Source: Candidatus Poribacteria bacterium
Lineage (GTDB): Bacteria > Poribacteria > WGA-4E > WGA-3G
Reading direction: 5' to 3'
Assembly (NCBI GenBank): GCA_964291315.2
Contig: OZ219753.1
Location: 2,272,001 to 2,336,000, forward strand
Length of the DNA: 64,000 bases
Every line of letters starts with the position of its first letter. Positions within the stretch are counted from its first letter, which is position 1. The notes below the pieces were generated by a model, which was given only the letters and a program-made list of their open reading frames with translations, ran no database searches and was not told where the DNA came from. The position numbers and the translations under genes are program-made. Positions 10,652 to 62,300 of this stretch are shown here, in pieces.

Positions 10652-11536
10652 TTAACGGTCAGATTGCTCCTTTTGCCGTTGCTGCCACTTTTGAAAATCT
10701 CGAAGTCGTTTTTCATGTTTTTTACGTGCCTCCCCCTCCGCATCAACTGAGTTATAATAAACGTAGTTCAGGAAAGTCGTATCAGTGGAGAAAGCAGAGC
10801 GGATCCTATGAAAAAGGAGCGGATATTGGATAGCTACCCATAACAGACCATCGTCAACGTTTCCATGCTTTTCAAAGAGACCTCTTATCCTTTCCGCATC
10901 TGCTGTCAGCTGCACTTCTACCATGTTGAGAATCGGCATATTGTAATCGCGGATGATTTGTGTCATTAACCAACCAGACATCTCGACCTCCGCATTGATG
11001 CCGAATCGGGTCTCCAGCATTTTCCGGAATAGTGGGCTCCTCATAAATTTCGCTTTGCTTGGCAACTGCAAACGTATATCGTGTTCACGTATCGGTTTAT
11101 CAGCCCCTCGTTTTATAGCTCTGTCAACCCACCCATCAGTCACTTCACGGTGAACAAGAAAATGTTCGGTGTCCTCGACTTCTGCTCCTGTTTCAACCCG
11201 AAAGTGCTCAGTATAGAAAGGTAGATAATGGTCTTTGGGAGGGAGTATCTTGTTAACAGGGTCCTCAAAGTTAACGATCTCCTCAAACCCTTGAATCGCT
11301 TTTGCGTTCGGATAGGCTTCGGCAAGGAAGGCGTGATATTCGGGACTTGCAGCGAGTTTGTGAACGGTTTTCAGGTCCTTATCTAATATCTCACCGGGGA
11401 ATAGTTTTCTAAGAATATCGCTCGTTTTTTTCTCAAGGGCTGTCGGTTCGGGGATGCTATCTGTGTATTCTGCAGCATTCACAGATATACCGAGACTTAT
11501 CAAAAGGAATAGGCAAACTGTCTTTAAAACTTTCAT
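10652..11536 (-). CDS. Secreted hypothetical protein (last gene of cassette)
   Basis: 294-aa ORF with signal peptide; start overlaps upstream stop (TAATG). Confidence 0.7.
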   Translation of the reverse strand: MKVLKTVCLFLLISLGISVNAAEYTDSIPEPTALEKKTSDILRKLFPGEILDKDLKTVHKLAASPEYHAFLAEAYPNAKAIQGFEEIVNFEDPVNKILPPKDHYLPFYTEHFRVETGAEVEDTEHFLVHREVTDGWVDRAIKRGADKPIREHDIRLQLPSKAKFMRSPLFRKMLETRFGINAEVEMSGWLMTQIIRDYNMPILNMVEVQLTADAERIRGLFEKHGNVDDGLLWVAIQYPLLFHRIRSAFSTDTTFLNYVYYNSVDAEGEARKKHEKRLRDFQKWQQRQKEQSDR

Positions 11537-11852
11537 TACTTATTCTCCTTGGGAAGTTTTGACTGTCTTCTTTTTTCACGGAGTTGTGCAAGGCGTTCGC
11601 GGACTTTTTCCATGCGTTCTTTGCAACAGGGACACTCCTTCTTTTTTTCTACCGTAGCAGTTATTTGTGTGGTTTCTCTGTGGTTCTCAGAAATATCTAC
11701 GATAACCTGTGGTTTCTCTGTGGTGGGGATCTGCCCTGTTTTGGTGCTGTTCTGCTTATATCGGGGGAGTAGTTCGCGTATCCGATGCAGATTACTCCTA
11801 GTCCGATGAGGGCTATGAGACATACAGCGTAAAAGATGTGTTTGTCTTTCAT
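11536..11852 (-). pseudogene. Small membrane-anchored CxCC protein, frameshifted at the G5 run near 11763-11767
   Basis: ATG at 11852 gives MKDKHIFYAVCLIALIGLGVICIGYANYSP; the C-terminus ...KKKECPCCKERMEK... is in another frame; one extra base joins them; similar to 50640-50987. Confidence 0.65.
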
Positions 11853-11942
11853 TATTCCTTCTCCTTCTGGCGTTGGATGCGGTCTTCAATGTATGTGGCG
11901 AGCTCGGGATCAGCCTCTTTAAGCTTGCGGAGTCCCTCTTGA
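11813..11942. repeat. 130-bp exact direct repeat, copy 1
   Basis: Identical to 13075-13204 by direct comparison (offset 1262). Confidence 0.95.
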
Positions 11943-12934
11943 AGTCCGTGTTGTGTTAAAGTCCGCATGCCAGCATTAAGACGTTCGGCTGAGAAGCTTT
12001 CACGGAGAGCCGTTTCAAAATCAGCATTGGTGGGCAAGTCAGGTATATCTGCTAGAATGTCCTTTATGGGCTTTGTCTCAAGTTCTTCTATAGGGCGTGC
12101 TATCTGCTTCGGACCCGTTAAATCCTCGGTGTCTTCACGTTGCACCGCTTCGGTACCGCTGTTTTCCGTGGCAACGTCGGTGGGTTTTGGTTCAGCCGCC
12201 AAGTTAGCAGGCGTTGCGGGAGGTAAGGTATCGGTGTCTAGAGACGTAAATTCTGCGACAATACTAGCTGCGTTTTTTTGAATTTCCTGTCCCCACTCGT
12301 ATTCGCCTTCAAACCCATTGAAATATCCACGGCTCCAGATGCCATTTGCCCGGTCTGCGTTGAATATTCTCAGAACCTCTGTGACATCTCTAGAGGGGTC
12401 TTCAAGAAAGAGTTCGGCAATGTAGTGGCGCATCATGGGCTCATAATCCGCGTATTCGCCGGTTGGGAAGTATTCACGAAAGAATGTTTCCTGTACTCGT
12501 CTACCGGTATGCGGTATTCCTAGTTCCTCCAAGAGTTCCCACCAGAGGACGACGTTGAACCCGGGTTTTTCATCTTGCTTTCTGACGTATTCCAAGTGTT
12601 CGGGCGAGTCCAGAATGCGTTTCAGTTCTTCCATCCGGGGTTCACCATCTTTCCAGCCCCATCCAACACGCATTATTTCGAGACGTTCTTCTTTCGCTAT
12701 TTCTGCCCTTTCTTCTAAAGTGAGCGTTTCCTTCCGTTTTTTCCTTTCTGCTTGTGGCGGTTCATCGTCTGATTCTTCCGTTATTTTTGTCGCCTGTGAT
12801 GTTTCGACTGTGCGTGGTTCAGTTTGTGTCTTCACCGGGGCAGAGTCTCTTGGCCGGAAGGCAAACCAGCTAATAACGCAGAGTCCGATGACGATAGTGA
12901 TGATGCTAATGCTATAGACAGGTCTCATCTTCAT
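11852..12934 (-). CDS. N-terminally anchored hypothetical protein with conserved C-terminal helical motif
   Basis: Likely start MKMRPVY at 12934 (AAGGA upstream); TM segment; ends ...EGLRKLKEADPELATYIEDRIQRQKEKE. Confidence 0.75.
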   Translation of the reverse strand: MKMRPVYSISIITIVIGLCVISWFAFRPRDSAPVKTQTEPRTVETSQATKITEESDDEPPQAERKKRKETLTLEERAEIAKEERLEIMRVGWGWKDGEPRMEELKRILDSPEHLEYVRKQDEKPGFNVVLWWELLEELGIPHTGRRVQETFFREYFPTGEYADYEPMMRHYIAELFLEDPSRDVTEVLRIFNADRANGIWSRGYFNGFEGEYEWGQEIQKNAASIVAEFTSLDTDTLPPATPANLAAEPKPTDVATENSGTEAVQREDTEDLTGPKQIARPIEELETKPIKDILADIPDLPTNADFETALRESFSAERLNAGMRTLTQHGLQEGLRKLKEADPELATYIEDRIQRQKEKE

Positions 12935-12957
12935 TTTAGCTTCCTTTGAATAGAGGG

Positions 12958-12982
12958 CAGTTGTGCCCATGGGGCACAACTG
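12958..12982. promoter_or_regulatory. Perfect 11-bp inverted repeat hairpin
   Basis: cagttgtgccc-atg-gggcacaactg between the Cys-rich peptide stop and the next gene's RBS. Confidence 0.7.
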
Positions 12983-12999
12983 TTGATTTAAAGTTGGAA

Positions 13000-13074
13000 C
13001 TAATAACACTCATTGTAATATTGGTAACAAGCATTTCCTGCTTCTCTTTGTGCATCCAAGCATTCAGCTGAAGT
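13000..13074 (-). pseudogene. 3' fragment of Cys-rich small protein
   Basis: Translates TSAECLDAQREAGNACYQYYNECY*; begins exactly at the repeat boundary 13074/13075. Confidence 0.5.
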
Positions 13075-13204
13075 CTATGAGACATACAGCGTAAAAGATG
13101 TGTTTGTCTTTCATTATTCCTTCTCCTTCTGGCGTTGGATGCGGTCTTCAATGTATGTGGCGAGCTCGGGATCAGCCTCTTTAAGCTTGCGGAGTCCCTC
13201 TTGA
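13075..13204. repeat. 130-bp exact direct repeat, copy 2
   Basis: Identical to 11813-11942. Confidence 0.95.
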
Positions 13205-14196
13205 GGTCCGTATTGATTCAATGTCTTCATAGCACGGTTGAAACGATCGGGTGAAAACTGAGCCCGGAGAGCCTTTTCAAGGCTTTTGTGGATTCGTAAC
13301 TCGGGAGACTCGGGAACTGGAGACGTTAGCGTATCAACGCCTCCCTGCTGCGTAGGGACATCATCGCTGATTGTCTTTTCAACCGGTGAAGGGGTGTCTG
13401 GAAGCGAACGAGTGACCACAGGTGTTTGCCGGTCCCCTGGTAGTAATTTCATTTCCGATTGGGGGCGCTCCGATCCTATGGAATCGTTGATGCGGGCAGC
13501 GGGGCCTTTCTCCTCGGCGGCCAAATACTTTTCCCGCTCGGCTATACGTATCTCTTCAAAGGTCAAACTAGTCCAATCTTGAGAGGAAGGAGGCAGAGAA
13601 CCAAACTTTTTTTCTACCCACGAGAGATACTTCTCGTCTGATAAAAGCTCTATCAAAACAGAAGAGTTACGACGCAGAGAGTATTCCTCTTCCTTATGGT
13701 GTTGATGTTTAAGGATCGCGTCTCTCATCATGGATCGGATAATAGGTTCATTCTCATCAACTGTTCCCCTCGGGAAGTGTTTGCGATATAGGCGATCCCT
13801 TACCGCTAGCACCTCTGGGGTTTCTTGAAAAAAACCGAAACTTTTGCTTTTTTCAAACCACTCATCGGAGGACGGCATGTTATCGAAAAATGCACGACCT
13901 TCTTCGGATTCTACATACATCAACCACCGTTGGAACTTGGGATCGTCGATCTCCTTGGTAATTTCCTTGATAGTCTCAATCATAAAGTCACTCGGTCTCT
14001 CATGAGGGTGGGGGTGTGAGGTATCCTCGGCATGGATGTGAGGATCCCCCTGGTGTGGAGCTTCAGGACGACTCGGCCCCGTTTCATGCGTTTGCATTGT
14101 CTTCTCTGATGCTGTTCGTCTATGGAAAAACCGAAGCACGCTAATGAAGAGAACAACACTGATAGGGAGAAACAGACAAATTTTCACGACTTTCAT
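13114..14196 (-). CDS. N-terminally anchored hypothetical protein, paralog of 11852-12934
   Basis: TM N-terminus, His-rich linker, same C-terminal ~29 aa as its neighbour. Confidence 0.78.
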   Translation of the reverse strand: MKVVKICLFLPISVVLFISVLRFFHRRTASEKTMQTHETGPSRPEAPHQGDPHIHAEDTSHPHPHERPSDFMIETIKEITKEIDDPKFQRWLMYVESEEGRAFFDNMPSSDEWFEKSKSFGFFQETPEVLAVRDRLYRKHFPRGTVDENEPIIRSMMRDAILKHQHHKEEEYSLRRNSSVLIELLSDEKYLSWVEKKFGSLPPSSQDWTSLTFEEIRIAEREKYLAAEEKGPAARINDSIGSERPQSEMKLLPGDRQTPVVTRSLPDTPSPVEKTISDDVPTQQGGVDTLTSPVPESPELRIHKSLEKALRAQFSPDRFNRAMKTLNQYGPQEGLRKLKEADPELATYIEDRIQRQKEKE

Positions 14197-49405: not shown

Positions 49406-50650
49406 GTGCTCAACAAAAGCTCTTTAGCCCATCGCAACATACCCATCACTATCATCGGGGGCGGCATCCATGGTATAACCATCGCCTTTCGGTTGCTTCG
49501 CGAAGCCCCGGTAGCAGCGAAACATCTTGCTATTGTTGATCGGTTCCCTCCACCCCTCACGCAATGGCGACGTAAAACGGAACGCCAAGGCATGATGTTT
49601 CTCCGCTCTCCGGCCGTCCATCATATCTCTGCTGACGCACTCGGCATTGTTGAATACGCCGAACGCCACAACCGCACTTCTGAATTAGCATCACCCTATT
49701 TCCAACCCTCTACCCAACTTTTTTGGGACTTCTGTAGCGATACACTTGCGGAGCTTGATCAACATCGGGTCTATTATCAATTTGATGTGACAAAATTACG
49801 TTGGGACAAAGGCGCAGGTCAATTTCCATTCCGTCTCATCTCAAAAGAAAATGATGGCTTTCGGAGTCGGTGTGTCATCCTCGCTGTTGGCGTTGACGAT
49901 TGCCCTTACATACCCCCGGAGTTTACCGAGTGGCAGTACCAGTATCCAGACAGAATTTTGCACGCTTCCGAATTTAATGTAGCTTGTCAGGATAAACGAG
50001 ACAATGAAGAATTTTTTGTTATTGTCGGAGGCGGGTTGACGGCCGGAACGCTCGCCAAAAGTCTAGGTGAACGAGGACACAGGGTCGCCCTGATTGCCCG
50101 GAACCGGCTCAAGACGGAACAATTTGATTTTCCGCCGGTGTGGCTAGGACCCAAGGCGCTGGCTGAATTCGCAAGCGAGACCAATTTTCAGCGGCGTTAC
50201 GACATAATTCAACAAAGCAGAGGGAAAGGGAGCATTACGCCTGATATTATGAAAGCCTTAAGGCGTGCCTCAAACATCGAGATGTATCCAGAGACTTGCA
50301 TCCAGAATATCGCCTCGGTCGGAGAAGGAAATCAACCACAGCGATTGAAGGTTAGCACAAATCGCCTGAACATTCTGAATGTGTCGTGTGTTATCTTGGC
50401 AACCGGCTATCAATTTGATTTGCACCGCTACGGGTTTTTGAAGACGTTAATCGAACAGCACAAGATTCCACTCGTGTGTGGGCTGCCCCGTCTTGATGCC
50501 GATTTACAACTCTATCCGGTCGAAAATCTATTCGGATCTGGCACTATCGCGCAACTTCAGATAGGTCCCGCTTCAGGCAACATCGCCGGGGCAAGTCTCG
50601 CGTATGAACGTCTACGGGAAAAGCTGCTTGGAATAGCAGTTAGTGGTTAG
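49406..50650 (+). CDS. FAD/NAD(P)-binding flavoprotein (lysine N6-hydroxylase-like)
   Basis: IIGGGIHG, LRSPAVHH, VGGGLTA, LATG, GP..GNIAGA. Confidence 0.8.
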   Translation: MLNKSSLAHRNIPITIIGGGIHGITIAFRLLREAPVAAKHLAIVDRFPPPLTQWRRKTERQGMMFLRSPAVHHISADALGIVEYAERHNRTSELASPYFQPSTQLFWDFCSDTLAELDQHRVYYQFDVTKLRWDKGAGQFPFRLISKENDGFRSRCVILAVGVDDCPYIPPEFTEWQYQYPDRILHASEFNVACQDKRDNEEFFVIVGGGLTAGTLAKSLGERGHRVALIARNRLKTEQFDFPPVWLGPKALAEFASETNFQRRYDIIQQSRGKGSITPDIMKALRRASNIEMYPETCIQNIASVGEGNQPQRLKVSTNRLNILNVSCVILATGYQFDLHRYGFLKTLIEQHKIPLVCGLPRLDADLQLYPVENLFGSGTIAQLQIGPASGNIAGASLAYERLREKLLGIAVSG

Positions 50651-50987
50651 CAAGTCTTGTGGCAGGTGATACCCTTACGGTCCCTACAAGCGGGTTACTG
50701 ACAACTGAGCTCGGAACGGCTTGACGGAAATCGATAGTCCTGCGTGTCAGTGCTTTTCGCTCTGCACAACATCCACAAGAGGGCTCCACTTTGGTAGATG
50801 TGATCGTTTTCTTCGATGGCATAGCAGATCGTGTAGATGTAGGCGACTTTACGGATGCCCCTGTCTTCGCCGGGGATTGCTTAACTTCCGTTTCAACGGG
50901 TGTATCGGTCGTGTAACCGATAAAAGCAACTAGTATTCCAATAATCGCAAGGGCAGTTACACCATAGCGTATGCGAGTTTCTTTCAT
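50640..50987 (-). CDS. Small membrane-anchored CxCC protein
   Basis: TM N-terminus, SCGCCAER motif; similar to 11536-11852. Confidence 0.65.
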   Translation of the reverse strand: MKETRIRYGVTALAIIGILVAFIGYTTDTPVETEVKQSPAKTGASVKSPTSTRSAMPSKKTITSTKVEPSCGCCAERKALTRRTIDFRQAVPSSVVSNPLVGTVRVSPATRLANH

Positions 50988-51743
50988 TTAGTTGCCCTCC
51001 ATGTGTTCAGGTTTATAGAATTCGTCACCACTTTCTATGGCCCGTTGTGTTACGGCGCGAAGGCGTGCCGCATGTTCAAAATTTCCTGCTTCTTCCATAT
51101 AATCGGCGACTTGATTCCCAATAGCAACTGGAATCTTGTCGCTTTTCAGGGCCGAAAGTATTAGTCGTTGGATTTTGATTGAGATAAAAGGGTTACCGCC
51201 TTGCATGTGAAGCGTCCCCCGTTCTTGATTTATTCTTAGCAGCTCTTCCTCGAGATCAAGAAGTCTGATCGCGACCCCCGGATTTCCATCCGCGTGGGGA
51301 ACTAGGGCTCTCATCTCAGCTTCAATTTCGCGAAGTCTTTGTGATGCTCTTCTTTTTTTATCTGCTGCTAAGGCTTCGGGCGAAGTTCCTCTTCGCTTTG
51401 GCGGCGGGACAACAACCGTCTCTATGGTTGTTGTTTCATCGGAAGCTTGATTATTATCGAAGTTGCCGTTTTGATGGAACTCAGTAACCGTAGGCGCTCC
51501 ATCAATTCGAGACGAGTGTTTTTGCTCTAACGAATTCTGTGTTTCAGCACCCGAACGCTGGGTTACTTGTATTTGATTACTGTTCTCTCTCTTTTCAAGA
51601 GGGACAGTCTTGTAGACCTTTATAGGCGGTGCCGTCTGCCTGAATAACCAAGCTGTTAATGTGGGTTCAAAGGCGATAATAGATAGAACGCCTATTAGCC
51701 CTAATATTCCGTAGAAGTAGTATTTTTCCAGAAAAGATAACAT
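50988..51743 (-). CDS. N-terminally anchored hypothetical protein
   Basis: TM N-terminus, PIKVYKTV linker, helical C-domain; GGAG RBS. Confidence 0.72.
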   Translation of the reverse strand: MLSFLEKYYFYGILGLIGVLSIIAFEPTLTAWLFRQTAPPIKVYKTVPLEKRENSNQIQVTQRSGAETQNSLEQKHSSRIDGAPTVTEFHQNGNFDNNQASDETTTIETVVVPPPKRRGTSPEALAADKKRRASQRLREIEAEMRALVPHADGNPGVAIRLLDLEEELLRINQERGTLHMQGGNPFISIKIQRLILSALKSDKIPVAIGNQVADYMEEAGNFEHAARLRAVTQRAIESGDEFYKPEHMEGN

Positions 51744-51772
51744 GCGTCAAAATCTCCACTTTTTTAACGGGA

Positions 51773-51803
51773 CCCTTGGCAACATATACACTATTGCCAA
51801 GGG
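51773..51803. promoter_or_regulatory. 10-bp inverted repeat hairpin
   Basis: cccttggcaa-11 nt-ttgccaaggg. Confidence 0.65.
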
Positions 51804-51834
51804 AATCCTGCTGATAAGGCGGTTTCCTCATCTT

Positions 51835-52105
51835 TTACGACGAGGAGGGTTCGTACGGCCAACTATCATACTGGCATGAATACCAGCTATGGGGCTTATT
51901 ATGTCCGTCACACCCCCAGATATGATCCGCCCAATGTTCATCATATTCATCGGTTCCGACTACATGCATCGCAGATGTCTTGGACACCGTCTTTACAATA
52001 TTCTATTTCTTCATAGTAAATGACCAAGCAAACTTCTCTAACATAGCAATCCGCGTAGTATCTGAAGGTGTAGGTAGGCGAACCACAGAAGCCTAATTGT
52101 ATCAT
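51835..52105 (-). pseudogene. Frameshifted Cys/His/Tyr-rich small protein
   Basis: Two overlapping frames: ...YADCYVREVCLVIYYEEIEYCKDGVQDICDAC (51947-52105) and MHVVGTDEYDEHWADHIWGCDGHNKPHSWYSCQYD... (51835-51969). Confidence 0.45.
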
Positions 52106-52216
52106 GAAATGGCGTTGTTCTCTGCGCCGGCCGTTCTACCCGCCTCGACGCATCTCGGAAAAATATTCGGGGACGTGCCTTACAAAACTATTAGGCTTGA
52201 GCTTAGAACAGTGAGT

Positions 52217-53146
52217 CTATCGCGTCAAGGCGTAGGCGACAACATTCATTCCTTGTTCGAATGCCCAGAGCCTTTGATCTTCACCTCCGGGTTCACAAGG
52301 TCTGCCTTCCCACGCGCAATTCAGATCGCTTGGACAGAAGTAGATAATCACGCGATCGTCATCCATAATCGCTTCGTCGTAGTCAGATATATCTGGAATC
52401 CGTTTATCGCCACCGAGGTATTCATCATGCTGATAAAGCGTGTGATAAATCGGGTGGCTCATTTCCAAGCGTTCAAACTTCTTCTCTGGATAAATCTGCT
52501 GGACCATCTCGTAGATGTACGGGCGCAAGCCGCCTCGGTAATTGTAAAGGCGGGCATCGCAGTCTTCTACATGGAGAAAACCGCCACGCTCAAAGTAATC
52601 CCTAAATTTTCGGACCTGTTCTGTAGAGAGGCGGATCCCTCTGTGTCCTGTCATATATAAAAACGGATAGGCGAATAACCCTTCATCGTCAATATCCACG
52701 TATTGTGGATGCTCGCGCACCTCGACATCAATAGTGGTATTTTCGGCAAGGACCTCCGTGAACTTCAAATCCGATTGCCACCGGTAGTAGTTAACAATAT
52801 TCGTGTACCAATCCCCCCCGGGATACTTGAGACGTACAAACGTAAATTTCTCGCCCGTTGGATTCATCTCCGGGTAGTGATGTTCAATTACGCCGTAGCG
52901 CGTCCCGTAATGAACGTCTCGTGCAGCATCGTACGGAATGTATTCTCGGAACCCCCATTGGGCTTCTGTAGGTAGAATTAAGCCACCCGCCGCGAGGGCA
53001 GAGGCGGCAAACCCGATTGAACCTTTCAAAAAGGAACGGCGCGACAGGGGTTTTGGCTCTGATGCCATGCTAGATACAAGCTCCCGCTTTTGGTTGTTTG
53101 CCTTCGATTTTTCGATAGATTTGGGGAGACGACTCTTATTCAACAT
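52217..53146 (-). CDS. DUF4159 domain protein with Tat signal
   Basis: SRRSFLK; FVRLKY, YPFLYMTGH, GGFL, HPIYH, GMNVVAYALT; GGAGGAG RBS before ATG 53146. Confidence 0.85.
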   Translation of the reverse strand: MLNKSRLPKSIEKSKANNQKRELVSSMASEPKPLSRRSFLKGSIGFAASALAAGGLILPTEAQWGFREYIPYDAARDVHYGTRYGVIEHHYPEMNPTGEKFTFVRLKYPGGDWYTNIVNYYRWQSDLKFTEVLAENTTIDVEVREHPQYVDIDDEGLFAYPFLYMTGHRGIRLSTEQVRKFRDYFERGGFLHVEDCDARLYNYRGGLRPYIYEMVQQIYPEKKFERLEMSHPIYHTLYQHDEYLGGDKRIPDISDYDEAIMDDDRVIIYFCPSDLNCAWEGRPCEPGGEDQRLWAFEQGMNVVAYALTR

Positions 53147-53222
53147 AATTTTTTCTCCTCCTATTCCAATGCCCATGGGCTCGAATCTGTTACATTTAAC
53201 GGTATACCTGCTTTATTATAAA

Positions 53223-54581
53223 CTAAAACCGGGAAAAAATCAAGATAGCATCCGAAATCGCTCGGCCCTCCTGTCTCGGTATCGGGCGAATTCGACGATT
53301 ACCGCGGGCAGTTCGCGTGTTTTTCTCCGCTGCACCTGCTTCCAATGGTACTTTATTATCCGGCCTCACGTCTTCAGAATCTTTCCTCTTAACACTTACG
53401 ACTTCGTCTCGAATGACTAACATTGATGAATTGCCGCCGTCTAGATTAAGGACGTCCGTGGCCCCCCACTCCAGAAAGAGCTCTGCTAGGTGGGGAAGCT
53501 TAACACCGCGTCGCACCCGCGCCTTTGATGCCGTTATTGTCACAAAAAGTAGGGTGCCATCTGCTTTTTTACCAATTCCCGTGCGTGGATGCCAAAAACT
53601 GTGGAATGTCCGATCAAACCCTTCAAGCTCGTACGCTTGCGTGGGCAAGACAGCCTGATCCTGTAGTAGCAACGGACCTCCACCAAGGATATGCGTAAAA
53701 CTGGCCCACAGATTGCTATCTCCAACGCGTTCGGGAATGATTTTTTCACGAATCTGCACCATATCCCCTTCCGAGACACGCGTCAGTAGATCCCTGCTCT
53801 TCTCACCACTTGCGGATAAAACATAACCGTCAGCAGGAATGCGCGAACTTCCCACTCCATTACGAATATTGGTTACCTCGCCCTTTCTCACAACGACCTC
53901 TATACCATCAGGCATTGTTAGCGTTACGGTATGAAAGTGCGGGCGGTAAATTATCAATTCGTTTCTACCACGCCCCCGATTTATCCCGTCAATTGACAGT
54001 ATTTCTCCGCTCTGCGAAAGGAGCTCCTGTCGCAGGGCTATTCTGTCAATGAACGACTCAATCTTTCCATCAACAGTCCGAAATCCAATGGCCGCCCTCC
54101 CCTGCTCGGGTTCGCTCACCCATTCACCGCCGATCTTCAGCGCACCAACAGACTCGCCTCGAAACGTTCCAACCATCTCAAAGAAACCGCCATTTATTGC
54201 AGCTAGTGCCTTGTGTCGCCGTGCAAGCGACACTAGTGACTCTGTGCCAATTCCCGCACTCAACGCCCGGTAAGGACGAATATCAACGGCATCAGGTGAG
54301 ACCGAAAGAATGTTCGTTAGCAAACCGTTGCGTAATATCTGCCGATGGATAACGCCTTGTGCGACCGTTTTTGTTATATCACTTCGTTCAAAATCTACAA
54401 TAGATCGAAAGTAATCGGTTATTTTGCTGAACTGACTTGTCTGTCCCACCCAAATACCCATACAAAAAATTAGCAGAAAGCCCACTATTGTGAAGATACG
54501 TGGACAGTTTCTAATAAAACGAAAACACCGCCGTCCTAAATAGGTAATATCAAACATTGTTTCTGAGCCGACAACCTGCAC
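53223..54581 (-). CDS. Phosphodiester glycosidase (NAGPA) family protein
   Basis: AAINGGFF, GGGPLL, HPRTGIG, NLDGGNSS. Confidence 0.88.
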   Translation of the reverse strand: MQVVGSETMFDITYLGRRCFRFIRNCPRIFTIVGFLLIFCMGIWVGQTSQFSKITDYFRSIVDFERSDITKTVAQGVIHRQILRNGLLTNILSVSPDAVDIRPYRALSAGIGTESLVSLARRHKALAAINGGFFEMVGTFRGESVGALKIGGEWVSEPEQGRAAIGFRTVDGKIESFIDRIALRQELLSQSGEILSIDGINRGRGRNELIIYRPHFHTVTLTMPDGIEVVVRKGEVTNIRNGVGSSRIPADGYVLSASGEKSRDLLTRVSEGDMVQIREKIIPERVGDSNLWASFTHILGGGPLLLQDQAVLPTQAYELEGFDRTFHSFWHPRTGIGKKADGTLLFVTITASKARVRRGVKLPHLAELFLEWGATDVLNLDGGNSSMLVIRDEVVSVKRKDSEDVRPDNKVPLEAGAAEKNTRTARGNRRIRPIPRQEGRAISDAILIFSRF

Positions 54582-56254: not shown

Positions 56255-59200
56255 ATGAAAATTCCGACACTCATTGACAATGTAGAAGGCAACACCCTTC
56301 TGAAAGCTCTTGAAAACCTGCTTGTAAAAAGCGTTAGCTTGGATATAGCGACTGGAACATTTGAAATAGGCGTGTTTCTATCGCTCGGCGAGAAATGGCG
56401 GCATTTAGAGAGAATCCGCCTCCTGATGGGGGACGAGACCACACGGCGCACTAAAGAAGCACTCATCAAAACTCTTCAAGAAGTCACCGATGACAACATC
56501 GAATCTGTAAAAAAGCAAGACGACACTCTTCACGGACTAGCTGCTATCCGGGACGCTATTCGCAACGGACGAATTGTTGTCCGTGTTTATGACAAAGCCA
56601 AATTTCACGCGAAACTCAATTTGATGCACGCCCAAAACTCAAGTCTGGTTGACTTCGCGACCGTCGGCAGTTCCAACTTCACCACACCAGGACTCACCCA
56701 AAATGTTGAGTTAAATTCTTTCATTACGGATCCGACACATATTCAGAAACTCAACGCGTGGTTCGATGCCCGTTGGCAGGAGGCATCTGAAGTGAAAGAG
56801 GAGCTGCTCCGCACGGTCGAACGACACCTGAGGGCGTACCCGCCCTTTACCGTCTACGCCAAAGCACTCCATGCCTACTTCAGAGGGCGCGAGAAACCTG
56901 CAGATGCATGGGAAGAAAACGAATCGATGATCTACCGTACGCTTTCGCAATACCAAAAAGACGGTTACCACAGCGCTCTTCAGATAGCAGACACATGGAA
57001 CGGTGCCCTTATCTGTGACGGTGTCGGAAGCGGCAAAACTTACATCGGCTTGATGCTGCTTGAACGCTACCTCCGCGAAAACAAGCGGGTGCTGCTTATC
57101 ACGCCGAAATCGATTGCAGAAAGCGTTTGGCACAGTCAGATCAGTCGTCAACTCCAAGCCAGATACGGCCGCCTGCTCCGCGAACACTACGATATTAAGC
57201 TGCATACCGATCTCGGACGGCAAGGTGGGATTAACGATGAGGACCTCGAATACTTCCGCCACTACAAAGATGTTATTATTATAGACGAAGCACATCACTT
57301 TCGAAATCCACGTTCTAACCGCGGCCAACTCTTGATGGAACTCGCTAAGAACAAAAAACTCTATCTCCTCACCGCCACTCCAATTAATAACAGTCTCGAC
57401 GATATATACCATCTGATTAACTATTTCGCACAGGATAATAAAAATCATTTTTCCGAGCTCGGCGTATATGATTTCCGTAAACATTTTCTCGATATTGAAC
57501 GACAACTTGAGAATGAAGACACCGAAATTGCCGAACAGGTCGAAGAAGACGACGTTTTACGTCAAGACCCATTATTGAAACAGGTACTCATCCAGCGAAG
57601 TCGCGCGTATATCAAAGACGCTGATATCGAATCCGGGACGCAGATCCTGTTTCCAAAACGCGTCATCGAACCAACAGTGAACTACTCGCTCCGCCGGGTC
57701 TATCGGACGCTCTATGAGGAGCTACAAGAAGCTTTTAGCAAAGATTACCCATTTTTAAATTTAGCAATTTACAATACAGTTAGGTATCACAAGAACCCGG
57801 AAAGACACATTGAAAACCGGGAAAAACAAATTATCGGTCTCATCCGAACACTTGTACTCAAACGTTTAGAAAGCTCATGGCGAGCATTTGAGGCGACTGT
57901 TGAAAATTTGCTTCTGAACATGGCGGTCTGGCTCCAAAAATACGCCCCCAAACGTTTTGAGATGTGGGAAGGTACCAATCAGAGATGGTGGAGCGTCGTT
58001 CAGAAACATATCCGGGCAAGACTTCAAAGCGACGGAATCTCATCGCAGCTGTCCCCGGAAAACTTGAAGCGTGCTGTGGTATCGAACCCTTCTGAAGAAG
58101 ACGATGACCTCGCTTCACTTGAAACAGAGGACGATTTCATACCTGCACACCACAATGTGGACAGTTTGTTTGACGATGTCGTTGACGATATGAATTTTTT
58201 GACAGGACTCCTCAGTCGAATGTATAGGCTCTTTTATGCCGACCAGCTCGCAAATGAGCCCGCTACAGAACAAGATGACAAACTCCAGCAGCTCTTGAAG
58301 CTTCTCAAACGGCACCCGAATGAAAAATCCCTCGTTTTCACAGAATTCTGTGATACCGCTCGCTATCTATATACCCAGCTGCAGCGCGCCCGGTTTAAGC
58401 ACGTTGAACAAATTGATAGCCGCCGGAAAGTAGATCGCGAGGAAATTATTCAACGTTTTTCGCCTTGCTATAACGGGGCATCCCCGGAAGCCGTTGATCC
58501 CGTCCATACGCTCATCACAACAGACGTTCTGGCAGAAGGACTTAACCTACAAGACGCAGCTATCATTATCAATTACGACTTGCATTGGAACCCTGTCCGC
58601 CTTATGCAACGGATCGGTCGATTAGACCGCCGACTTGACCCGGCAATTGAAGCCCGCCTTAACCGAACCGACCCTACTGTCCATGTCTGGAATTTCTTAC
58701 CGCCTCAGGAACTTGACGTTCTCCTTAAGCTCCGAAGGCGGGTTGACGGTAAAATCCTCCGGATTAGCCGGACCCTCGGCATCGAAGGAAAGTTCGTTTC
58801 ACCGGATGACGACGATGAAACCCTCCGTCTCTTCAACGAACGTTACGACGGCACAGAGAGCATAGAGGAATTGATGAATCTTGAGCGGCAACGTATCTCC
58901 GAAACGTATCCTGAGTTGTGGAAACAGCTGCCAACCCTTCCTCTGCGCCTCTTTTCTGGCAAGGCTATAACAGAGCATCCCCCGCCTTTCCTCAACCGGA
59001 ACGGCACCTCTATTCCAATCGAACGCATCGAGACTACAGGAATCTTCTGCTGCTACGAAATGCCAAACTGTGAAGTCAAATGGTACTTCTATGCCGACAA
59101 AACAGGAGAAGTCTTTGATAACCTCGAGGAGATTTGGCCGGAAATCCGCTGCGATCAAAATACGGAACGCCGGACTGAAAGAGAACCCAGCAGCCTCAAA

Positions 59201-59359
59201 GACGCACGCAAACACATCGAACGCTACACCCGTTCCTATCTGAAAAACATACAAGCACCGATGGAAACAAATCCTAAACTTATCGCATGGATGGAGATCT
59301 CTGGCCAGCCAGAAAAGTCCTGTGAGCTAACCCTTGAGGAATACCAATGCCAAACATAA
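56255..59359 (+). CDS. PLD-nuclease / SNF2-family helicase fusion
   Basis: FHAK...GSSN PLD motif; DGVGSGKT, DEAH, TATP, EGLNLQ, QRIGRLDR. Confidence 0.9.
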   Translation: MKIPTLIDNVEGNTLLKALENLLVKSVSLDIATGTFEIGVFLSLGEKWRHLERIRLLMGDETTRRTKEALIKTLQEVTDDNIESVKKQDDTLHGLAAIRDAIRNGRIVVRVYDKAKFHAKLNLMHAQNSSLVDFATVGSSNFTTPGLTQNVELNSFITDPTHIQKLNAWFDARWQEASEVKEELLRTVERHLRAYPPFTVYAKALHAYFRGREKPADAWEENESMIYRTLSQYQKDGYHSALQIADTWNGALICDGVGSGKTYIGLMLLERYLRENKRVLLITPKSIAESVWHSQISRQLQARYGRLLREHYDIKLHTDLGRQGGINDEDLEYFRHYKDVIIIDEAHHFRNPRSNRGQLLMELAKNKKLYLLTATPINNSLDDIYHLINYFAQDNKNHFSELGVYDFRKHFLDIERQLENEDTEIAEQVEEDDVLRQDPLLKQVLIQRSRAYIKDADIESGTQILFPKRVIEPTVNYSLRRVYRTLYEELQEAFSKDYPFLNLAIYNTVRYHKNPERHIENREKQIIGLIRTLVLKRLESSWRAFEATVENLLLNMAVWLQKYAPKRFEMWEGTNQRWWSVVQKHIRARLQSDGISSQLSPENLKRAVVSNPSEEDDDLASLETEDDFIPAHHNVDSLFDDVVDDMNFLTGLLSRMYRLFYADQLANEPATEQDDKLQQLLKLLKRHPNEKSLVFTEFCDTARYLYTQLQRARFKHVEQIDSRRKVDREEIIQRFSPCYNGASPEAVDPVHTLITTDVLAEGLNLQDAAIIINYDLHWNPVRLMQRIGRLDRRLDPAIEARLNRTDPTVHVWNFLPPQELDVLLKLRRRVDGKILRISRTLGIEGKFVSPDDDDETLRLFNERYDGTESIEELMNLERQRISETYPELWKQLPTLPLRLFSGKAITEHPPPFLNRNGTSIPIERIETTGIFCCYEMPNCEVKWYFYADKTGEVFDNLEEIWPEIRCDQNTERRTEREPSSLKDARKHIERYTRSYLKNIQAPMETNPKLIAWMEISGQPEKSCELTLEEYQCQT

Positions 59360-62300
59360 CCGTTGAAGATGTTGATACTATAACTGACTTTGAGACGCTC
59401 TTAGCGTTTTTTCGTGACACTCTCGACTGGCCGATCCCCGAAGACGTGACGCTCGGCGAGATAGCTTTCCCGTGGTCGTCATCAGAGCTGGAGCTTGATG
59501 AAACGGCTGAGGCACGCCTTGTTGCGTGTGATCAGCTGCCGCCGTTCGCGCGCGAGGCGTTGGGATTTTCTCCCGAGGTCGGCTCGCAGCCGTGGGGCAT
59601 CTTCTTTGTTGAATTCAGTAGCGAGCGGGTGTATCGCACGGAGTTGCGGCGGGTTCTGCGGGGTCTGGTTGAAAGGCGCACCCGAGATGCACGGTTGCCT
59701 GCGTGGGAGCTGGATCATCTGCTATTCATCTGCACGACTGCTGATTTCCAGCGGTTTGCGTTTGCCCACTTCGCAGGTGCGGGTGCGTCTTGGCAGGATG
59801 CGGTGCTGTCTATATTCTCGTGGGATCGTGGGGATACGCACCTTCGGACGCTGTGTGAATACAACCTGCCGGCTCTGGTGTTTCCGCGTGGCGGTTTTTC
59901 GTCGTCGCAAGCATGGGTTGCTAAATGGCAGCGTGCGTTTGATGTGGCGGCTGTGACAGATCAGTTTTTCCGTGAGTATAAGAGCGTCTTCGAATTAGTG
60001 GAGGTGGCACTGTCAGGGATCCCAAAGAGCGAGGCGGATGAGCGTCGGTTGTATACGCAGCGTCTGTTGAATCGTTTGATGTTTCTGCGTTTTCTTGAGA
60101 GAAAGGGTTGGTTGCGGTATGCGGGTCGCCGGGACTACTTGCGTGCGTTGTATGAGGCTGCAATGGGCATCGAGACTCTCTCTGGGAGTGCGGAATCTAT
60201 AAGAAGCGGGGGGGGTAATCTCTGATAAGCATAAGCCGCCTCGGACAGAGAGCTTGCTCAACGACCGGCTCTATTACGTCTTCTTCCACGGTCTCAGCAA
60301 TCCCGCCGGTGAGTCCGGATCCGAAGATGCCGCCGCTCGCACCCGGCGTGGCGATGTGCCGTTCCTCAACGGTGGCCTCTTCGAGATGCAGCCGTATGAT
60401 GAACAACACGCAGTGGATCTGCCGAACGACACCTTCGCTGACATCCTCAACCTCTTTGAACGTTATAACTTCACGATCACCGAATCGACGCCGCTAGACA
60501 TAGAGGTTGCAGTAGACCCGGAGATGCTGGGTAAGGTGTTTGAGGAACTGGTCACGGGGCGGCACGCCAGTGGGAGCTACTACACGCCGCGTGCGGTTGT
60601 CTCTTTCATGTGCAGGGAGAGCCTGAAGCTCTGCTTGCAGAAGCAGACAACGGAGAGCGCGGCGTGCCTGACACAGTTCGTAGACGGTGGCGATGCCACG
60701 GGCATTCGCGATTCAGAGGGCGTGTTAGCGGTGCTGCAGAACTTACGGGTGTGTGATCCTGCGTGTGGGAGCGGTGCGTATCTACTCGGGATGATGGGCG
60801 AACTGCTCCGCCTGCGCGATGCTCTGTTCCAAAGCGATCAGACCGATTCTGGCACGGTGTATGAACGCAAGCTGGAGATTATCCGGAAGAACCTTTACGG
60901 CGTGGACAGAGACGACTTCGCTGTCAACATTGCGATGTTGCGCCTGTGGCTGAGCCTCACAGTAGACTATGAAGGTGCCGTACCGGAACCGCTGCCGAAC
61001 TTGGACTATAAGGTTGCAACCGGAGACAGTTTGACCGGTGCAACCCCCGAACAGCTGACGCTTGAAAGGCCGTTGATCCAAGCGATACAGGAGAAACAAG
61101 CGGACTATTTCATCGCACACGGGGACGCAAAGAAAGAGGCACTCCGAGCGGAGATCGCCGCACTCCGAGCGGATCTTCAAGGCTGGCAAGATGCCCCGGA
61201 GGAGGCGTTTGTCTGGCAGGTCGAGTTTCCGGAGGTCTTCCAAGCGGGCGGTTTTGACATTGTGATTGGCAACCCGCCTTATGTGCGACAAGAACTTATC
61301 AAAGCGATGAAGCCGACTTACAAGCGGCTATTCCCAGAGGTGTATGTCGGCACCGCAGACCTCTACGTCTATTTTTACAAGCGCGGCACGGAGCTGCTGC
61401 GGAGGCACGGCATCTTGGCGTATATCTCCTCAAACAAGTTTTTGCGGGCAGCGTATGGCAGAAAACTGCGTACCTTTTTCAGCGATACCCAACGCATTCA
61501 GCGGCTGCTTGACTTTGGGAGTGTCGCTGTCTTCAAAGCGAGTGTGGATACCTGTATCCTGATCCTTGAAAATGCCACATCAGACGGAGCGCCTGTTTCG
61601 GTGGCGACGTTTCGGGATGCCTCCGATGTGCTGCGGCTGTCTGCGGCGTTTCGGGAGCGGGCGTTTCGGCTGCATCCGCGTGATTTATCAGCGGAGGGCT
61701 GGACGTTGGCATCGCCCGAGACACTGCAGCTCCTGCGGAAACTCGAAACAACTGGCACACCCCTCGGAGAATATGTGGATGGACTTTGGCGCGGGGTCGT
61801 AACAGGATATAACAAGGCATTTATCATCGATGCGGCTGTGCGGCAGCGGCTGATCTCCGAGGATCCGAAGAGCGATGAGCTCATAAAGCCTTTGCTCAGA
61901 GGGCGAGACCTTAGAAAGTGGCGGACGGATAGCACAGGGCAATATCTCATCTTCACACGGCAGGGGGTTGAGATTGACCGATACCCAGCTGTCAAGAAAC
62001 ATCTGAGCCAATATAGAGAGGCACTTGAAAATAGGGCAGCAGGACCCTATCAGTGGTATGAAATACAAGCGAATACCGCTTATTATGACAAGTTCGAAAA
62101 CCGAAGATTGTCTATAGAAGAATCGCAACATCGCTTGACGCAGGCTATGATACTAAAGGGGCATACGGTTTAGACACGATATTCTTCATACCTACTCCGG
62201 ATCTTCCTCTCCTTGCTATTCTAAATAGTAGACTTTTTGATTGGTATGCAAGATACAAAGTTTTACCTCTCAATGATCCGTGGGCAGGCGGCGGTCTGCA

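Follow-up and report, generated by a model that had tools for sequence, protein, structure and literature searches.

The DNA analysed here, called the window throughout, is a stretch of 64,000 nucleotides (nt) from the genome of a Candidatus Poribacteria bacterium (GCA_964291315.2, contig OZ219753.1, positions 2,272,001 to 2,336,000 of the forward strand, read 5′ to 3′). Our subject is a small group of minus-strand genes, which we refer to as the cassette. It comprises the remains of a gene for a small protein rich in cysteine, histidine and tyrosine (the peptide gene), a stem-loop, a gene for a protein of 251 amino acids (aa) anchored by a transmembrane (TM) helix, and a gene for a small TM protein with a CxCC motif. 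These features and the two genes that enclose them are as follows, in window coordinates.

51835 to 52135, minus strand: pseudogene of a Cys/His/Tyr-rich small protein, with an open stretch in frame A at 51950-52135 and in frame B at 51835-51987
51957 to 51960, minus strand: frameshift site, 2 nt short against the orthologue and the sister strains (DNA alignment, contigs of sequencing runs)
51773 to 51803, minus strand: stem-loop of 12 bp that separates the peptide gene from the gene for the anchored protein (folding)
50988 to 51743, minus strand: 251-aa anchored protein of type B (open reading frame, homologues, structure model)
50640 to 50987, minus strand: 115-aa small TM protein with SCGCCAER (open reading frame, six homologues)
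52217 to 53176, minus strand: DUF4159 protein with a twin-arginine translocation (TAT) signal, a flanking backbone gene outside the cassette (Pfam E 1.6e-37)
49406 to 50650, plus strand: oxidoreductase dependent on flavin adenine dinucleotide (FAD), the convergent flank (Pfam, tblastn)

The set of minus-strand open reading frames (ORFs) given in the initial annotation, a TM-anchored 251-aa protein directly abutted by the SCGCCAER protein, was found as described. The stop codon of the 251-aa gene directly adjoins the ATG of the 115-aa gene, and the 115-aa frame extends 11 nt into the convergent oxidoreductase gene. The frameshifted Cys/His/Tyr-rich gene of that annotation is likewise confirmed, with an extent of 51835-52135, and its hairpin at 51773-51803 is present with a stem of 12 bp, not 10 bp. 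No part of the cassette has a match in Pfam, NCBIfam or Rfam, and an Rfam scan of 50000-53500 returned nothing at E ≤ 1.

The peptide gene appears in the ORF list as two overlapping Cys-rich frames, 51947-52105 (52 aa) and 51835-51987 (50 aa), which lie in different reading frames. Both align colinearly, end to end, with one continuous 80-aa ORF at the orthologous locus of a genome from another genus of the same family (G126:C134); in the DNA alignment to that genome a gap of 2 nt falls where the two frames meet, and a second gap, of 15 nt, keeps the frame. Used as a query against proteins, the 80-aa ORF led to an intact 138-aa homologue with a typical signal peptide (P0009), to which frame A aligns at residues 49-88 (E 1e-7) and frame B at residues 113-138 (65% identity, E 1e-10). 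No signal peptide is encoded in any frame upstream of 52135, and what is missing from the window gene is the signal-peptide part and roughly the first 45 codons. Judged from these alignments, the two frames are one broken gene of a putatively Sec-exported Cys/His/Tyr-rich small protein; with the signal-peptide region lost and two nucleotides deleted, the window cassette can make no exported peptide. By a profile of the six-cysteine (Cys6) peptides, the window frame ranks 11th among the six-frame ORFs of its genome. The copy in G126 is damaged too, with its signal peptide in another frame and an in-frame stop after it. A Tyr/His-rich 119-aa ORF at another locus (L029) was considered as a relative of the window frames and found no support by tblastn.

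Contigs from sequencing runs place this damage among co-occurring strains. Independent contigs of run X1, which hold 0.93 of the sampled words and possibly come from the source sample, match the window across the frameshift site, and contigs of X2, X3 and X5 have CG inserted behind 51959, at the same position as the gap; the frameshift is therefore real and strain-specific and no assembly slip. Further lesions were seen in related runs: a single letter is absent at 51861, four extra letters stand at 52135, and X3 lacks 40 nt at 52097-52138. X2 and a minor X1 variant have a 2-nt deletion at 51592, which falls in the 251-aa gene around codon 50, and in X2 the first Cys of the CxCC motif is changed to Tyr (C71Y). 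Since X2 has lesions in both the 251-aa and the CxCC gene, and the CxCC gene of a second window locus (locus 1, described below) is frameshifted, the partners decay too. Between strains the 251-aa gene has 9 synonymous and 1 non-synonymous single-nucleotide polymorphisms (SNPs) in codons 118-251, and 2 synonymous and 9 non-synonymous ones in codons 41-79; the synonymous-rich SNPs predate the frameshift and are thus uninformative on selection after the loss of the peptide.

The 251-aa gene is full length by comparison with seven homologues. Its structure model has a TM helix near residues 2-37, a disordered linker at 38-117 and a five-helix C-terminal domain at residues 120-250, the latter with a predicted local distance difference test score (pLDDT) of about 90. 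The model has no match in the PDB by Foldseek at E ≤ 0.001 and generic helical hairpins only by VIA-align (best Z 7.7, root mean square deviation (rmsd) 6.1 over 67 residues), and an ESM Atlas search with the protein gave no usable match. Compared with G126, the ratio of non-synonymous to synonymous substitution rates (dN/dS) is 0.17 in codons 118-251; the linker gives 0.46 and the CxCC gene 0.45. The 115-aa CxCC protein has six database homologues at 47-70% identity, and in their alignment C71, C73, C74 and R77 are invariant; the basic tail of the window protein is degenerate and extended next to that of G126. A frameshift suspected in this tail was ruled out, the alignment keeping its frame. 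CXC peptides are reported to act as disulfide-isomerase mimics, and by analogy with them the CxC portion of the CxCC motif might have redox activity.

Between the dead peptide gene and its partner lies the stem-loop, whose 12 bp include one G·U pair. The 91-nt spacer before the 251-aa gene folds with a z-score of -6.24, and none of 200 shuffles folds as well; for the whole 473-nt gap the value is -3.04, a signal accounted for by the one hairpin and the coding remnants. No U-run follows the stem (the next bases are UCCCGUUAAAAAAG), so that it is no canonical intrinsic (Rho-independent) terminator. Among 24 spacers behind related peptide genes, 19 fold at z ≤ -3 with stems of 10-17 bp that differ in sequence, as assessed by simple shuffles on loci of which many are orthologous; in two of the others the stem measures 9 bp or more, and three short ones have none. 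Where the peptide gene is placed downstream of the CxCC gene, the stem-loop is again found behind the peptide gene. In lantibiotic, pilin and similar operons, a stem-loop that follows the structural gene curbs read-through or makes the short message more stable. The Poribacteria cassettes resemble these operons in having a strong stem-loop after a small structural gene and before accessory genes, kept in position while the stem sequence changes; they differ in that most of the spacers read have no U-run after the stem. By this analogy the stem-loop may set the ratio of peptide to partner message, raising that of the peptide over the downstream genes.

The arrangement recurs widely. In G126 the 80-aa Cys-rich ORF is accompanied by a 256-aa protein, 46% identical to the 251-aa protein, and by a 109-aa CxCC protein. 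A search with a CxCC profile found such genes in 49 of the 65 genomes of the genus, the window's own counted, often in several copies; a search with a single CxCC protein recovered them from 33 of 111 other genomes in the family and from none of the 47 genomes of three sister families. For a census we took about 5 kb on each side of 58 matches, together with the G126 locus and four loci of the window's own genome, which gave 63 CxCC genes in 60 loci. Directly in front of 57 of these 63 genes stands a gene for an N-terminally anchored protein, 49 times of a kind that we call type A and 8 times of type B, the type of the 251-aa protein. Of the 63 genes, 36 are accompanied by an unbroken signal-peptide ORF that has four Cys or more (33 upstream of the operon head, 3 just downstream); this count follows a script rule, with three genes too near a contig end to be scored, and the rule missed at least two ORFs that were found by eye, at the own-genome C3 locus and at L092. 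The intact relatives have Sec-type signals with A-x-A-like sites. The initial annotation had compared two copies in the window and claimed that the layout of peptide, hairpin, anchored protein and CxCC protein is kept across loci, proposing a census of the genes upstream of CxCC proteins and a search for intact peptide genes with signal peptides. Both were carried out, and the layout is borne out: anchored-protein genes precede most CxCC genes, and intact signal-peptide Cys-rich genes do exist at other CxCC loci, which removes the concern, voiced in the same place, that the upstream Cys-rich frames might have no homologues and be absent from such loci.

The two types of anchored protein have in common only the membrane anchor and a juxtamembrane motif (hhalign probability 84%, 43 columns). 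Type-A proteins end in a conserved ...YGPxEGLRRLKxSDPE... module, and a search of 1.84 billion proteins yields 465 representatives of type-A clusters at E ≤ 0.001; among 14 distant type-A relatives, Pfam gave no informative domain except in one fusion to leucine-rich repeats. The C-terminal module (...YGxEEGLRRLK...) is also found fused behind the CxCC motif in two small proteins (L103:1876-2271 and L078:2133-2603) and behind leucine-rich repeats in a 477-aa protein (P0158), and so behaves as a portable module.

The surroundings of the window cassette indicate how it came to its place. The DUF4159 gene is present in 30 of the 31 genus genomes searched, and in 5 of 13 relatives' loci (tblastn, L119-L131) the oxidoreductase lies 32-267 nt from it; none of these 13 loci has a 251-aa, CxCC or peptide gene within 1.5 kb. 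As the flanks are nearly adjacent in relatives that lack the cassette, the window copy fills an otherwise short gap between convergent backbone genes. On this comparison of gene order, the window cassette is a 1.6-kb insert between conserved convergent genes. Both of its ends are eroded, the 5′ part of the peptide gene being gone and the CxCC frame having lost its stop and entered the neighbour.

How the parts may work together was modelled on the best-sampled peptide family (85 aa, six conserved Cys), whose neighbours are of type A. The peptide model consists of a signal helix and a two-helix hairpin with pLDDT > 90, and the fold of the mature part has generic matches only, the best being a Rop variant (Z 7.7, rmsd 2.2 over 51 residues). 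The complex prediction was given the mature peptide, the ectodomain of the type-A neighbour and the C-terminal part of the CxCC neighbour. It scored 0.90 in three runs, compared with 0.02 for the best of three controls; 116 of 157 solved complexes attain that mark, as do 2 of 215 mismatched pairs, a calibration that is only rough since our own alignments were used in the complex prediction. In the model the pLDDT of the partner is at least 76, contact agreement is at least 46%, and every listed contact falls within residues 64-206 of the anchored protein. The model thus supports, as a prediction, binding of the mature peptide by the type-A anchored protein. In ten orthologous type-A cassettes, dN/dS is 0.15 for the mature peptide, 0.13 for the binding domain and 0.12 for the CxCC segment, which is purifying selection. 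Between divergent paralogues, signal peptides are 51% identical and mature parts 26%.

The window holds a second locus, locus 1, at 10.6-14.2 kb, with which the initial annotation had compared the cassette. Its features are the following.

10652 to 14196, minus strand: type-A cassette in tandem duplicate (ORFs, three-frame translation)
13114 to 14196, minus strand: first type-A gene
13003 to 13113, minus strand: fused remnant of a CxCC gene N-terminus (KDKHIFYAVCLI) and the C-terminal end of a Cys6 peptide gene (tblastn, profile, three-frame translation)
12958 to 12982, minus strand: stem-loop of 11 bp that follows the peptide remnant and precedes the second type-A gene (z -3.99, 0 of 200 shuffles)
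11852 to 13009, minus strand: second type-A gene, with its likely start at 12934
11536 to 11852, minus strand: CxCC gene split between two frames
10652 to 11536, minus strand: 294-aa 'F265' protein

The sequences of the two window loci do differ strongly, as had been stated, the large proteins sharing only the anchor and the juxtamembrane motif. The further statement that in both copies the peptide gene is broken and the large partner intact finds support: locus 1 has only a remnant of the peptide gene (13003-13074), with rank 4 genome-wide by the profile, and the 251-aa gene of the window cassette is full length. The CxCC gene of locus 1 is itself split. A 40-nt duplication (repeat D3) was considered as the cause of this CxCC frameshift and dropped, since only 17 nt are repeated.

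Rearranged and incomplete copies are also seen elsewhere. Three of the four CxCC cassettes in the window's genome have no intact peptide gene. At C2:24000-31000 of this genome (L056) a type-A cassette is duplicated in tandem; the first copy has the variant motif CACCKVTR, and the second has lost its CxCC gene apart from the first codons (MKDTH), now joined to the next gene. A 13-kb array at C4:3180000-3193000 (L055) contains several kinds of N-terminally anchored proteins and small signal-peptide proteins with internal duplications (239-aa and 100-aa ORFs are repeated) and no CxCC gene. A probable rearrangement scar is seen at L111:3738-4274, where two tandem copies of a cassette meet and a CxCC gene continues in frame into the beginning of a GTPase gene. 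The window's genome measures 4.4 Mb (95% complete); the 64 other genomes of the genus are larger, mostly 4.6-6.7 Mb, except G054 (4.3 Mb, 84% complete). Elsewhere in the window, at 56255-62173, a PLD-SNF2 helicase (1034 aa), an ORF of 292 aa that matches no family and an Eco57I/MmeI-type methylase (639 aa) stand in a row, which looks like a restriction or defence locus.

Regulatory genes are frequent neighbours of the cassettes. In 35 of the 63, a sigma factor of the extracytoplasmic function (ECF) type, or a BNR/Sortilin-repeat protein of the family in which such a sigma is fused, lies on the same strand within 5 kb; the local sigma profile had drifted and drew in BNR proteins, and counts that depend on it were sample-checked by Pfam, with which all 8 stand-alone sigmas and the single full-length fusion in the sample were confirmed. 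The fusions are proteins of 978-1035 aa with an N-terminal ECF sigma region (Sigma70_r2/r4) followed by BNR/Sortilin-Vps10-type repeats (L110:7177-10128, L111:9381-12488, L085, L090). At three cassettes a small anchored protein is encoded directly before a stand-alone ECF sigma gene (L086:1372-1944, L103:4999-5478, L101:2623-3444), with a weak match to type II secretion protein C (Pfam T2SSC, E 6.5e-5 for one). A sigma-54 activator is often last in the cassette operons (L062:386-1699). A 665-aa polytopic protein often found downstream of cassettes has a weak match of the STT3 type (NCBIfam archaeo_STT3 E 2.8e-15, far below the cut-off). STT3-like ORFs of 665-809 aa stand behind many cassettes (L062:2178-4175 and C3:202429-204168 of the window's own genome are examples), and L061:210-2552 matches Pfam STT3 at E 1.7e-12. 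The Thr/Ser-rich linkers of the CxCC proteins could be substrates of the STT3-like protein. No ECF sigma, BNR/Sortilin-repeat protein, STT3-like protein or sigma-54 activator adjoins the window cassettes among the neighbours scanned.

Taken together, we consider it probable that the locus represents, in a state of decay, an accessory cassette which is found so far only in one Poribacteria family and encodes an extracytoplasmic peptide-binder module. The product of the intact first gene would be a small protein in which a cleavable Sec signal peptide precedes a disulfide-rich mature part; for the best-sampled paralogue this part is predicted to be a two-helix hairpin with six conserved Cys. The message of this gene would be raised over that of the downstream genes by the stem-loop. 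The second gene would encode an inner-membrane protein held by its N-terminal helix with a folded domain outside, and the third a small single-pass protein with the invariant CxCC motif and a basic helix. In the loci read, the stop of the anchored-protein gene abuts or nearly abuts the CxCC start, which suggests translational coupling. The presence of a signal peptide on the peptide and of positive charge ahead of the anchors suggests that the folded parts face the periplasm. Once exported, the peptide would bind to the anchored protein's folded domain, and the three parts, on the predicted binding, would thereby form the module. We infer a specific pair of peptide and receptor, or of peptide and holder, often under ECF sigma control. 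That such paralogous modules form an undescribed class, in which a disulfide-stapled peptide exported by Sec is joined by its dedicated binder in the membrane and by a CxCC protein as co-anchor and every set is specific to its own peptide, is a tentative extension, which we would not expect to hold in this full form. In the window copy the 251-aa gene keeps its full length, the tail of the CxCC gene is weakened and the peptide gene is dead. Literature titles on Poribacteria with ECF sigma factors or cysteine-rich proteins included none on such a cassette.

Several points weigh against the proposal of a peptide-binder module. The binding prediction was made for a type-A paralogue, with which the type-B protein of the window has only the anchor region in common. 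None of the four protein families has a specific fold match or a match in Pfam, NCBIfam or the Atlas. The spacer in G126 forms only a weak stem, then a U-run (z -0.68), and no sigma gene stands beside either window cassette among the ten neighbours scanned. As to the census, L087, L100 and the own-genome C2 locus were left out, their CxCC ORF having been lost by the gene picker, and many of the loci are mutual orthologues, so that the counts overstate independent support.

Other explanations have been weighed beside the peptide-binder module, and one of them concerns the peptide gene itself. The 52-aa ORF from 52105 is open and starts with ATG, and it might work as a leaderless small protein with the second frame arising by chance, no pseudogene being present at all. 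We regard this as highly improbable, since the second frame matches the last 26 residues of P0009 so closely, both frames are continuous in G126 and in the sister strains, and a signal peptide and some 45 further N-terminal residues belong to the intact form. It is also improbable, if less markedly so, that the cassette is a sigma control module in which the CxCC or the anchored protein is a new kind of anti-sigma for an ECF sigma and the peptide is the signal. Such a role would account for the sigma genes and sigma-BNR fusions near 35 of the 63 cassettes, which at several loci are directly adjacent. It has to contend with the position of the TM helix of both membrane proteins at the extreme N-terminus, with about five residues before it; with the positive charge before the helix, which on a reading of the sequence suggests an N-in topology that leaves the remainder outside the cytoplasm; with the absence of any match to an anti-sigma or zf-HC2 domain; and with the lack of a sigma gene next to the window cassettes among the scanned neighbours.

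The initial annotation had likened the locus to orphan immunity arrays, with partners retained after the loss of an effector. Spelled out, a bacteriocin-like toxin that acts in the periplasm or on neighbours would have been lost, and the anchored and CxCC proteins kept as immunity against kin that still make it. We hold this to be unlikely, yet it is a more serious contender than the two preceding ones. The recurrence of the cassette, with intact peptide genes at other loci, and the broken peptide gene beside a full-length 251-aa partner are as such a history would have them. It also draws on the predicted tight binding of the peptide by the neighbouring partner, on signal peptides that are better conserved than mature parts among divergent paralogues, on cassettes that are multi-copy, tandemly duplicated and rearranged, on the patchy distribution and the insertion in the window, and on a peptide frame that is open in some co-occurring strains and not in others. 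The 9 synonymous SNPs against 1 non-synonymous in the C-terminal domain of the 251-aa protein would suit a partner under selection, but this pattern is older than the frameshift. Searches of Pfam and NCBIfam and fold searches found no toxin or immunity family or fold; orthologous mature peptides and binding domains are under purifying rather than diversifying selection; type-A orthologous cassettes sit in conserved operons with regulators and the STT3-like enzyme; a Sec signal takes the peptide only to the periplasm; and the partners themselves are hit, by the 2-nt deletion and C71Y in sister strain X2 and by the CxCC frameshift at locus 1. Purifying selection on the peptides, stable operons with regulators, export to the periplasm only and the lesions in the partners fit a conserved envelope or signalling module better. 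For the window copy we favour general decay after insertion over a proven, selected orphan immunity.

Bacteriocin and microcin immunity pairs, including the Sec-dependent class II, likewise have a small exported-peptide gene first and a membrane-protein gene directly behind it, with the binder (here predicted) encoded next door and loci that are multi-copy and patchy. The Poribacteria cassette is unlike them in its third conserved protein, the CxCC protein, and in orthologous peptides that are conserved and not diversifying, and we found no sequence or fold link to the described families. To our knowledge, no killing activity has been reported for it. The orphan immunity arrays of type VI secretion systems (T6SS), contact-dependent inhibition (CDI) and colicins also leave a partner open beside a broken or missing cognate, and the tandem partners at locus 1 recall them; in the cassette, by contrast, the lost gene is no recognisable toxin and the partner genes carry lesions too. 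Conotoxins and ciliate pheromones share with the peptides a conserved signal peptide and Cys scaffold and a mature sequence that varies between paralogues, whereas the cassette belongs to a bacterial host, has a genetically linked membrane binder, and encodes what appears to be a plain disulfide-stapled helical hairpin.

Much of the gene content of the uncultured Poribacteria, which live as sponge symbionts, is unexplained, and the present analysis makes out, among ORFs so far listed as hypothetical, a defined and recurrent cassette of four parts whose core can be tested, a secreted peptide predicted to be held by a protein encoded next to it. Data at the level of strains catch the window cassette in the act of decay. 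If such modules do form a class of their own, the window would show how they are gained by insertion and lost piecemeal, and these bacteria would possess many peptide-binder sets wired to ECF sigma factors, some of them fused to BNR/Sortilin repeats, to a sigma-54 activator and to an STT3-like oligosaccharyltransferase; the modules could then serve peptide signalling or the recognition of self and non-self in a sponge symbiont. Should the peptide prove to be a toxin, a signal or a surface component, some 465 type-A clusters in public data would gain a function.

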